Shown here: positions 6,588 through 21,833 of the stretch, piece by piece
Numbering within the stretch: position 1 is the first letter of the stretch
Layout of the letters: the number at the start of each line of letters is the position of its first letter
IMG/VR virus record: IMGVR_UViG_3300028591_000079
Coordinates: 96,001 to 160,000 of that record
Reading direction: 5' to 3' (one strand)
Length of the DNA: 64,000 bases
Origin: a virus
Taxonomy: Duplodnaviria > Caudoviricetes
Notes under the pieces: generated by a model
Databases searched by the model: none
Seen by the model: only the letters and a program-made list of their open reading frames with translations
Told to the model about the DNA's origin: nothing
Translations under genes and position numbers: made by a program

Positions 6588-6650
6588 ATTATAATACATT
6601 TAATCTAAAAAGAAATAATTTAATGTCATTTAATGTAAAAAAATTTAATC
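6588..6650 (-). promoter_or_regulatory. Promoter with four (C/G)ATTAAA boxes and a TATAAT -10
   Basis: Minus-strand boxes at 6644-6650, 6629-6635, 6619-6625 and 6599-6605, then TATAAT at 6588-6593. Confidence 0.55.
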
Positions 6651-6730
6651 AAAAAACCGGTCATTTATTTTCGCTCCTAACTTGATTTATCACATATTTC
6701 GTAGTGAGCTTGGACATGACCGGAAGGACC
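6651..6730 (-). ncRNA. Candidate ~80-nt small RNA downstream of an AGTTCTA site
   Basis: AGTTCTA at 6739-6745 (minus) has no ORF after it. 5' CCGGUCAU pairs with 3' AUGACCGG (8 bp) and is followed by U6. Confidence 0.5.
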
Positions 6731-6814
6731 ATATTAGCTAGAACTATGATTTGAATATTTTTTTCTTTGTTTTGCATAATTAATTTTCACTCTATAATAA
6801 CATAGGAATCTAAT

Positions 6815-19497: not shown

Positions 19498-19601
19498 ATA
19501 ACCAACGATGAGTTCTATAGAGAGGACAAGGAAAAATCTTCTAATCTAGGCTTCTATTTGGGTCTAGTTTTTATTTTTTAACAGCAGGGAGATTTTTTGA
19601 T

Positions 19602-20564
19602 ATGAAATTATTTACCATTGAAGAACCTATTCGCAAAGGCAAGACTTATCAATATGCAGTATTTTCAGATTTACACATAGGAAGTAAAGAATTCGATGGA
19701 GAATCATTAAAAAGAGATTTAGAAAAGTGTAAAGATAATGATGCAAAAGTAATAATCAACGGCGACACTATGGATTTAATATTGATGCAAGATATAAAAA
19801 GAGCATCTGCATCAAGGATAAAACCAGATGAAGGACAAATTAATCGTTTTATAGAAGAAGCTGCAGAAAATCTAATACCATATGTTTCTCAATTATGTAT
19901 TATAGCTCAAGGTAATCACGAAACTGCAATGATAAAACATCACGGAGTAGATGTATTGGCTTGGTTGATTGATATACTAAACAGAGAAAAGAAAAATGGT
20001 AGAATACAAGAAGGTCATTATCAAAACTTTGTGCGTGTAAATTTTCTTGACCCTAAAAGAGGCTATAAATTAGGGGGAAAATATACAATTTATATGAGTC
20101 ATGGGCAAGGTAATAGCTCTGCTCCAGTTACTAAGGGTATGATTGACTTTAATCGTATCGCTGTAGCAAATGAGGCTGATTTATATCTAATGGGACATAA
20201 ACACAATCACATAGTAACAACAATACCTTCCGCCACAATAAATGAAGATGATGAAATAACTGTGAGAAACAGAATAGCAGTACAAACACCGTCTTATACA
20301 TATCAAATAAATACAGATAAAGATAATGCTTGGATAGATAATTTTTATGGCAAACAATCAGCTCCTGGTTTTGCAAGAATAGAATTAGAACCAAGACTAT
20401 CATCAAAAAAATTTTCTCTCCCTTATGATATACATCCTACAGTTTGGATAGATAGCAATGATTCAAAACCAGAAATGATATTTAATGGTAATGTTGTAAA
20501 AGCTGTAGAAATTCAAAAAGCAAAAGATAAAAAAATAATTGAGCAACTCCAAAGACAAAAATAG
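19602..20564 (+). CDS. Calcineurin-like metallophosphoesterase
   Basis: SDLH, NGDTMD, GNHE, SHG and GHKH motifs in canonical order. Confidence 0.85.
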   Translation: MKLFTIEEPIRKGKTYQYAVFSDLHIGSKEFDGESLKRDLEKCKDNDAKVIINGDTMDLILMQDIKRASASRIKPDEGQINRFIEEAAENLIPYVSQLCIIAQGNHETAMIKHHGVDVLAWLIDILNREKKNGRIQEGHYQNFVRVNFLDPKRGYKLGGKYTIYMSHGQGNSSAPVTKGMIDFNRIAVANEADLYLMGHKHNHIVTTIPSATINEDDEITVRNRIAVQTPSYTYQINTDKDNAWIDNFYGKQSAPGFARIELEPRLSSKKFSLPYDIHPTVWIDSNDSKPEMIFNGNVVKAVEIQKAKDKKIIEQLQRQK

Positions 20565-20584
20565 TTCTAATAAATGATATACAA

Positions 20585-20666
20585 GAAAACCATTGAGAAA
20601 TTCGGGCCTCATAAGTTTTCACGGTCAGTTTCCCATCTATAGCCCGAATCTATAGGTGGGATTTTT
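20585..20666 (+). ncRNA. Candidate two-hairpin kissing-loop RNA or attenuator leader
   Basis: Follows AGTTCTA at 20563-20569. The hairpin 1 loop contains AUUCGGG. Hairpin 2 (12 bp, then U5) has the loop CCCGAAU, its exact complement. Confidence 0.6.
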
Positions 20667-20683
20667 ATAAAAGGAAACAAATA

Positions 20684-21502
20684 ATGAAAAAAATTCATGT
20701 ATTAACTGAAGAAATAAAAGAAATTTTTGATGATCAATTATTTGTGTTTACTGAAACAAACATAAAACTAACAGATTGGTATATACATCATAATGAAGAT
20801 TTTATAAATTATGTGTATGATAGTTTACAAGAATGGAGCAATGGCAATATAGATAATTGGAATATTGACGTTAATAGAGGTATATTTCTAAAAAATAAGT
20901 TTGAAAACACTCCAGATATAGAACTATCTCTTTTTAATGATATGGATTGGGCTGTTTATATGCCAAAAGAAGAAAAAATAATGTTATTTTTGTTGAACAG
21001 AGATTTTAAGATAAACAAAGAATTTATAAAAAGAAAAAATATGGTAAAACTTGTAATATTACATGAACTAACGCATCACTATGATAATATGTTTCTCAAA
21101 GGTAAAGGTATAAATATAGGTAGTAAACGAACAAAAATAAAACATCAAAACAATATAGAAAAAAACGCATACACAAAACAAATAATTCAACAAATGGAGG
21201 AAAATATTGTTGATACTATAAAAAAAATTAAATCAAAAATAATATCCAATGTAGAAACAAATTTTTCAACAATTTTACATTATTCATTAGGTGAAGTATT
21301 AAAAGAAAATCCAGAATTAAATAATTTTATGCAATCTTTAGATGATAAAACACTCAAAAAAGTATACAAAGAAATTGGAGAATATTTTAAAAATCGCATT
21401 GAAAAAGATTATAATTCATATGCATCCTTACCAAGTGCGATTTTTGACAAAATTAATTATAATGATCTACAAAAAACAAAACATAAAAACAGTTCTAAAT
21501 AA
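20684..21502 (+). CDS. HExxH zincin-like protein
   Basis: VILHELTHHYD followed by a distal IEKNAY (third-ligand Glu). Confidence 0.6.
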   Translation: MKKIHVLTEEIKEIFDDQLFVFTETNIKLTDWYIHHNEDFINYVYDSLQEWSNGNIDNWNIDVNRGIFLKNKFENTPDIELSLFNDMDWAVYMPKEEKIMLFLLNRDFKINKEFIKRKNMVKLVILHELTHHYDNMFLKGKGINIGSKRTKIKHQNNIEKNAYTKQIIQQMEENIVDTIKKIKSKIISNVETNFSTILHYSLGEVLKENPELNNFMQSLDDKTLKKVYKEIGEYFKNRIEKDYNSYASLPSAIFDKINYNDLQKTKHKNSSK

Positions 21503-21518: not shown

Positions 21519-21833
21519 ATGTTCAAAAGACTATTTAAAAGAAAAAAGAAAGAGGCACAAAATCCGTTAGGTTATCTAAAAAAGAATTACACCAACGAGA
21601 TTACAATTCAAGACATAGACCATAAAGAAGTGCAATTCAAAATAAGAGATGTTGGTAATGATAGAACTTTTCTAATTATTACTGATCTAAAAACAAAAGA
21701 AGAGATGGTGTTTGATTTTGACTCTGCTATTGTTTTGAATGCTATTATTACTGATTATGTTGAAAATGGAAATCTAAATAAAGTAGAAGAAATTTTCAAT
21801 GAGAGTCAAGAAGAAGAACAACAAGGAGAATAA
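21519..21833 (+). CDS. Hypothetical protein
   Basis: AAGGAG SD, with AGTTCTA at 21491-21497 upstream. Confidence 0.7.
   Translation: MFKRLFKRKKKEAQNPLGYLKKNYTNEITIQDIDHKEVQFKIRDVGNDRTFLIITDLKTKEEMVFDFDSAIVLNAIITDYVENGNLNKVEEIFNESQEEEQQGE

Follow-up and report, generated by a model that had tools for sequence, protein, structure and literature searches.

To our knowledge, the literature offers hardly any case, apart from the guanidine-IV riboswitch, in which the loop of a terminator is paired by a hairpin loop of the same RNA. ColE1 RNA I and RNA II, a pair of antisense transcripts from the same locus, interact through several loops, and phi29 pRNA is an RNA of 120–174 nucleotides with a three-way junction, encoded beside the packaging genes in small phi29-like phages. 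Lambda oop RNA and lambda 6S RNA (pR′ to tR′) are transcribed from a phage promoter to an intrinsic terminator within about 100 nucleotides; oop is antisense to cII, and read-through of the 6S terminator depends on the Q protein. DapZ and MicL are 3′-UTR small RNAs that have an internal promoter at the end of a coding sequence and share the terminator of the mRNA, and they work with Hfq and single-stranded seeds. The guanidine-IV riboswitch (also called the mepA motif or GGAM-1) consists of two hairpins with a short linker between them, the second hairpin being an intrinsic terminator (PMC7736828, PMC11611296). Its kissing loop is supported by covariation, and in the antitermination model the kiss stretches the linker, such that the outer pairs of the terminator cannot form (PMC7736828, PMC11611296).

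We studied a locus with two linked hairpins in a stretch of 64,000 nucleotides (hereafter the window), which covers positions 96,001 to 160,000 of virus record IMGVR_UViG_3300028591_000079. The record is 231 kb long, with 32% GC and an estimated completeness of 96%. Its source is an uncultivated jumbo phage, close relatives of which are known as metagenomic contigs. Directly upstream of the element is a metallophosphoesterase gene that ends with the stop codon TAG at 20,562–20,564, the last two bases of which are also the first two of an AGTTCTA box. The features of the locus are given below in window coordinates.

19,602–20,564, + strand: metallophosphoesterase gene (Pfam PF00149; PHROG 7339, "DNA repair exonuclease")
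20,563–20,569, + strand: AGTTCTA box, presumed to be the phage late promoter for this unit (from motif enrichment and conservation)
20,570–20,584, + strand: A-rich variable 5′ leader, presumed to hold the transcription start (from the alignment; 15–26 nucleotides in relatives)
20,585–20,620, + strand: hairpin H1 (from RNAfold, RNAalifold and covariation)
20,600–20,606, + strand: H1-loop strand of the putative kissing helix, complementary to 20,643–20,649
20,621–20,630, + strand: linker between H1 and H2 (9–11 nucleotides in relatives)
20,631–20,661, + strand: hairpin H2, intrinsic-terminator stem of 12 bp (20,631–20,642 with 20,650–20,661)
20,643–20,649, + strand: H2 loop of 7 nucleotides, the second putative kissing strand, complementary to the H1 loop over its entire length
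20,662–20,668, + strand: terminator U run, where the short RNA presumably ends (T5 at 20,662–20,666; kept in all relatives)
20,684–21,502, + strand: HExxH-motif gene (HELTH motif; found in only some of the relatives)
21,491–21,497, + strand: next AGTTCTA box, presumed from its position to be the promoter of a 104-amino-acid gene at 21,519

The coordinates and letters that the first-pass annotation had given for AGTTCTA, the two hairpins and the complementary loops proved right to the base. H1 comprises 13 stacked positions with an AU-rich base. In this phage its outer stem (20,585–20,590 with 20,615–20,620) and inner stem (20,594–20,597 with 20,608–20,611) are separated by a 3×3 internal loop, whereas the stem is an unbroken 13 bp in other relatives. 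The H1 loop (20,598–20,607) is 10 nucleotides long in this phage and 9–10 nucleotides across relatives. The stem of H2 contains five G-C pairs and has a GC-rich and invariant base, and together with the U run it has the makeup of an intrinsic (Rho-independent) terminator; in a terminator scan it was the top terminator-like site in 10 kb. In this phage 20,600–20,606 is the exact reverse complement of 20,643–20,649, with G/C at 4 of the 7 positions and a duplex energy of about −9.5 kcal/mol. RNAfold on the single sequence returned precisely H1 and H2 (−25.6 kcal/mol, z = −2.2, with 4 of 200 shuffles equally good), and the same two helices were recovered independently by RNAalifold on the alignment of homologues. 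Energies across the variants range from −4 to −12 kcal/mol for H1, from −15 to −18.5 kcal/mol for H2 and from −8 to −9.7 kcal/mol for the kiss duplex. The 5′ leader is poorly conserved and carries indels in the homologue alignment. The 5′ part of the linker evolves at a near-neutral rate, and its last four bases (20,627–20,630) are invariant.

Homologous loci were gathered by three independent routes, by the HExxH protein, by the metallophosphoesterase, and by a DNA pattern in which only parts of the H2 stem were fixed and the loop was left free. About 18 metagenomic contigs from close relatives carry the element, in 12 distinct sequences; wherever a locus extends far enough upstream, the metallophosphoesterase gene is there, with the element at its 3′ end. 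In the model-based alignment (A4), 5 of the 13 pairs of H1 have changed on both sides with pairing kept. In H2 every sequence is 100% paired; two pairs have changed on both sides and three by wobble. Overall, eight pairs show two-sided changes that preserve pairing. The paired fraction of alignment cells is 94.8%, as against 28–53% when the partners are slid, and none of 500 shuffles reaches the observed covariation score. Many U:G pairs on the + strand would read as C:A mismatches on the other strand; since these wobbles are valid only on the + strand, this is the strand that folds. The proposal that the locus holds a conserved RNA structure is thus borne out, with the fold on the + strand and covariation in both stems.

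The rates of change differ among the parts of the element. The H1 arms evolve almost at the rate of third codon positions, and their pairing is nonetheless kept. Mean pairwise identity in the neighbouring gene is 0.64 at third codon positions and 0.87–0.91 at codon positions 1 and 2; in the element it is 0.66 in the linker, 0.70–0.78 in the H1 arms, 0.86–0.88 in the H1 loop, 0.92–0.93 in the H2 loop and 0.85–0.98 in the H2 arms. The loops and H2 surpass the first two codon positions of that gene in conservation, and the identity values also hold in the protein-found subset alone. A coding reading was rejected: the 22-codon ORF from the ATG at 20,574 is not conserved, its ATG being absent in relatives, and no conserved ORF was found within the element among relatives.

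It is also evident that the complementarity of the two loops, noted earlier in this phage, is kept in the homologues, where all 7 loop-loop pairs are intact in each of the 12 distinct sequences. One of these pairs shows a compensatory change: the pair C20,603:G20,646 is found in eight sequences and A:U in four, with no mixed state. The A:U state occurs with two H1 stem types (L001 versus L011, L016 and L028). The replacement of C:G by A:U may represent one evolutionary event or two, both being possible because the tree of the flanking gene (630 nucleotides) is a polytomy. An eighth possible loop pair appears dispensable, since L019 is altered on one side only. Perfect complementarity and one covarying position lend the predicted kiss good support that is statistically not yet strong. 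Conservation and the one compensatory change show that the loop-loop pairing is under selection.

We then considered how readily such a pairing could arise by chance. AT-rich loop complements are common close to hairpins: genome-wide, complements of at least 7 nucleotides occur in 7 of 6,680 neighbouring hairpin pairs, each of them AT-rich, and complements to terminator loops are as frequent upstream as in control regions. A genome-wide search of upstream loops against terminators found no other G/C-rich loop-to-loop kissed terminator in the 231-kb genome. Two other candidates with 7-nucleotide kisses were rejected, as they lie inside coding sequence and fold otherwise. The present case stands apart by its G/C content (4 of 7) in a genome of 32% GC, by its loop-to-loop placement and most of all by its conservation. 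A single window leaves room for chance; conservation and covariation in relatives show that chance is not the explanation. A covariance model of the element (R1) finds a single copy in the 231-kb genome.

The element matches no catalogued family in the searches made. As the first-pass annotation had suspected, there is no known family to which it can be assigned: cmscan against Rfam 15 over 19,500–21,500, with E values up to 10, gave noise only. No match was found by blastn of 2 kb against GenBank phages, and degenerate patterns anchored on the H2 and H1 stems gave no match in 185,579 prokaryote species genomes. The last result also led us to reject an RNA anti-CRISPR or mimic of a host RNA, and excludes near-identical mimicry only. 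A pattern anchored on the loops gave 6 viral and 93 prokaryote matches, all of which were judged by model R1 to be chance. A tRNA-like or tmRNA-like RNA was rejected as well, since ARAGORN finds no cloverleaf, and no tRNA or tmRNA, in the window. Among relatives with a metallophosphoesterase at 63–40% identity the element is absent, and the metallophosphoesterase genes of relatives at or below 63% identity end without such a module. The element thus appears to be young and restricted to one narrow clade, because it is absent from distant relatives and from prokaryote genomes, and the pattern matches elsewhere are due to chance. Its conservation and covariation mark the element as a real, uncatalogued structured RNA of one jumbo phage clade.

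Among the described systems, the guanidine-IV riboswitch has the nearest architecture, and shares with the element the linked hairpin pair, the pairing of the loops and the use of the second hairpin as terminator. The element differs from it in having seven contiguous Watson-Crick kiss pairs and in being probably ligand-free and phage-borne. Its neighbouring genes are unrelated to guanidine, and it survives without a downstream ORF; the gene context of guanidine-IV (MATE/mepA, sugE/emrE) contrasts with a downstream HExxH gene or none. The helix expected to yield would also differ, being H1 and not the terminator. Membership in the guanidine-IV class is not supported, the two being set apart by gene context.

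The other systems share less of the arrangement. ColE1 RNA I and RNA II have in common with the element fully paired hairpin loops of 7 nucleotides. In the element, however, both loops are in one sense transcript, and signs of an antisense promoter are absent. An antisense RNA of the ColE1 type was rejected: Rfam gave no match, the wobbles fit the + strand only, and the reverse strand scores 16 bits with model R1 as against 104 bits. Like the element, phi29 pRNA is a phage RNA with two mutually complementary loops for which dimers or rings are possible, but it belongs to another type of genome, and the location here has nothing to do with packaging. It was likewise rejected, with no Rfam match and two simple hairpins without a three-way junction. 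The lambda oop and 6S RNAs resemble the putative transcript in being short, terminated RNAs with downstream genes reached by read-through only, and unlike the element they have no loop-loop pairing. DapZ and MicL share with it a promoter placed where the upstream coding sequence ends, and a terminator in common with the mRNA, whereas the element has conserved G/C-rich loops that are complementary to each other, and the search for its targets was negative.

AGTTCTA occurs 27 times in the window, with 7.6 expected, and the 62 copies in the genome are mostly co-oriented with, and 13–120 nucleotides ahead of, ORF starts. Ahead of the element the box is retained in all 12 variants, one of them reading AGTTCTG, and it stays constant while the leader of 15–26 nucleotides after it drifts and gains indels. 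Five of its seven letters at the element are non-coding. In L017 the stop codon has shifted upstream, off the AGTTCTA, and the box is still present. AGTTCTA thus behaves as a promoter box of the phage's own would, and the copy at the element, by its co-orientation, short distance upstream and enrichment, would be one of these promoter units. A search of the literature for phage promoters with AGTTCTA gave nothing but noise. The earlier idea that AGTTCTA is a promoter box therefore agrees with its enrichment, its orientation toward genes and its conservation ahead of the element, as far as sequence can tell. The description of the element as promoter-flanked applies to some relatives and fails in this window, where the next AGTTCTA after the element is at 21,491, beyond the HExxH gene.

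The HExxH gene, the product of which has no Pfam match and no PHROG family, starts 18 nucleotides past the T run and has a ribosome-binding site, but no promoter box belongs to it. Nine variants have this gene; it is absent in L016, L017, L018, L020 and L028–L031, and five distinct relatives lack it. The loci without it retain the box, H1, the kiss and H2, and have a second AGTTCTA box about 25 nucleotides after the T run, followed by the 104-amino-acid gene. The H1 of L017 is unique, and is compensated throughout. Since the element is complete where the HExxH gene is missing and a second promoter box follows directly, it is not merely the leader of that gene. HExxH homologues in other contexts (L009 and L010) have their own AGTTCTA box 25–45 nucleotides ahead of the ATG. 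The HExxH gene has the look of a passenger that can move, and would be expressed via read-through.

The best reading of these results, to which we assign a probability of about 0.45, is that the locus encodes a discrete late small RNA, the terminator of which would also leak into the promoterless HExxH gene. The element would be a self-contained late unit for a structured RNA of about 90 nucleotides. Transcription would begin a few bases downstream of the AGTTCTA box that overlaps the metallophosphoesterase stop codon; the RNA would fold as H1 and H2, with the H1 loop pairing with the whole 7-nucleotide H2 loop, and H2 and the U run would terminate the transcript. The small RNA itself would be the selected product. 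The same H2 terminator would close the upstream mRNA, and leakage through it would be the sole evident route by which the promoterless HExxH gene, where present, could be transcribed. The first-pass annotation had left a choice between a discrete RNA of about 90 nucleotides and an attenuator of the HExxH gene; the former is favoured here, as the element persists in relatives without that gene. If correct, this reading adds a small RNA gene to an uncultivated jumbo phage clade, apparently under the clade's own AGTTCTA box, a claim limited by the narrow-clade distribution of the element.

Two readings would dispense with such a transcript. Whatever comes next, the element invariably adjoins the 3′ end of the metallophosphoesterase gene, and H2 is a canonical terminator; the element could thus be a 3′-end module of the metallophosphoesterase mRNA only, in which H2 terminates, H1 and the kiss protect against exonucleases, and the box is unused. 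We consider this improbable, given that the mostly non-coding letters of the box are kept amid a drifting leader, that the box persists in L017 although the stop codon there lies upstream of it, and that the relatives at or below 63% identity end the same gene without such a module. It is hardly credible that the element is a signal at the DNA level, with the 8-bp arms 20,600–20,607 and 20,642–20,649 serving as inverted half-sites for a dimeric DNA-binding protein. Such an inverted repeat would also remain complementary under symmetric changes, and the arm centres are 42 bp apart, or about four helical turns. Each arm, however, lies exactly in the loop of a covarying hairpin, the G:U wobbles fit RNA of the + strand only, and the eighth position varies one-sidedly in L019. 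A 34-bp spacer would moreover be unusual for a dimeric site, and the motif does not recur elsewhere as such a site.

An attenuator tuned by the kiss is the chief rival of the small RNA, less likely yet possible. The box at 20,563 would then be the promoter of the HExxH gene, H1 and H2 would form its 5′ leader, the H1 loop would capture the nascent H2 loop, and the short RNA would be a by-product. The position of the HExxH start just past the T run, with its ribosome-binding site and no box, agrees with this reading, as do the AGTTCTA boxes at a similar short distance ahead of its homologues elsewhere. The gene just upstream likewise carries a promoter box with a hairpin and T run behind it, and the linker length is constant at 9–11 nucleotides. 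The same steric model has been proposed for the guanidine-IV riboswitch (PMC7736828, PMC11611296). Against it stand the five distinct relatives in which the element is complete, the HExxH gene is missing and the next gene has a separate promoter box. Furthermore, the weakness lies in the AU-rich base of H1, the base of H2 being GC-rich and invariant, so that H1 should open first; a 7-bp kiss with four G/C pairs looks constitutive, and a sensor element is not evident. We favour a kiss-locked small RNA over a kiss-driven antiterminator. The two readings are not mutually exclusive, because the HExxH gene needs some read-through anyway.

Geometry bears on the form that the small RNA could take. 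A coaxial stack of 13 + 7 + 12 bp is estimated at about 90 Å, and a linker of 9–11 nucleotides spans at most about 60–65 Å. Because the linker is shorter than the stack, both full stems and the kiss cannot form in one molecule, and this incompatibility requires either partial unzipping or head-to-tail dimers. The strain should open H1 and spare the terminator, because the base of H1 is AU-rich and weak and that of H2 is GC-rich and invariant. An intramolecular kiss would thus open the weak base of H1 and yield a compact rod, about 23 bp long, in which the terminator stays whole; alternatively, the kiss could form between two copies, head to tail and free of strain. Either form would give a stable, nuclease-resistant particle without a free loop.

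Pairing in trans was considered both with other transcripts and with further copies of the RNA. No convincing target was found at the start sites or ribosome-binding sites of the phage, where the best target duplexes have z scores of about −3 to −4.7 and are on doubtful small ORFs. It is conceivable, though unlikely, that the small RNA, instead of kissing itself, pairs head to tail with a second copy via two reciprocal 7-bp loop-loop helices, hand in hand as pRNA does, or with a nascent copy still on the polymerase. Copy pairing is favoured sterically, because full stems and the kiss are incompatible within one molecule and a closed dimer is easy to form. In the case of a nascent copy, accumulated RNA would capture the emerging H2 loop and termination would switch to read-through; if true, the RNA would act as a timer that senses its own dosage and controls the promoterless HExxH gene. 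Whichever form is taken, the element would be a simple natural kissed terminator, in which the kiss has seven pairs, the linker is short and of fixed length, and the loops come in two natural versions. The steric mechanism of guanidine-IV is still a model, and the C:G and A:U versions of the loops make the steric question directly testable.

The HExxH-motif gene (window 20684-21502), which lies downstream of the paired hairpins, shows a presence/absence polymorphism and is absent from several metagenomic contig loci of related phages (L016, L017, L018, L020 and L028-L031). Its insertion point lies exactly between the T run of the element and the next AGTTCTA box, the presumed promoter box of this phage clade. 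In other phages the gene is found in a different context with its own promoter box (L009:515-1300 and L010:79-807), and in L009 it adjoins a LAGLIDADG-type gene. The HExxH gene behaves like a movable passenger gene. The element region is also mosaic, as is evident when L018 is compared with the window and with the related locus L005. L018 carries an L005-type C-terminal coding sequence and yet its H1 is identical to that of the window, and recombination breakpoints therefore lie no more than a few tens of bases away from the element.

Conservation is also seen in the leader of the upstream metallophosphoesterase gene (window 19511-19604, + strand), which is likewise found upstream of the gene in L004, L005, L013, L024 and L026-L028. 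Features of this leader, and one on the opposite strand, are as follows.

Within 19511-19604, + strand: AGTTCTA box of the metallophosphoesterase leader
19546-19567, + strand: hairpin with a T run, in the same leader
6630-6745, - strand: AGTTCTA box, then ~85 nt without an ORF, ending in a stem and U run

The AGGGAG ribosome-binding site of the leader is predicted by RNAfold to form a helix of ~12 bp with a pyrimidine stretch, and a short TCTAATCT-like box is still present in relatives at 40-63% protein identity. The leader has the appearance of one that acts on translation or termination. The minus-strand stretch is possibly another short unit running from promoter to terminator; its fold is not better than those of shuffled sequences (z = -0.6). 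In the distant relative L027 (3450-3490), downstream of the metallophosphoesterase gene, a 10-bp hairpin terminates within an AGTTCTA box, so that a terminator-like hairpin and a promoter box overlap there.
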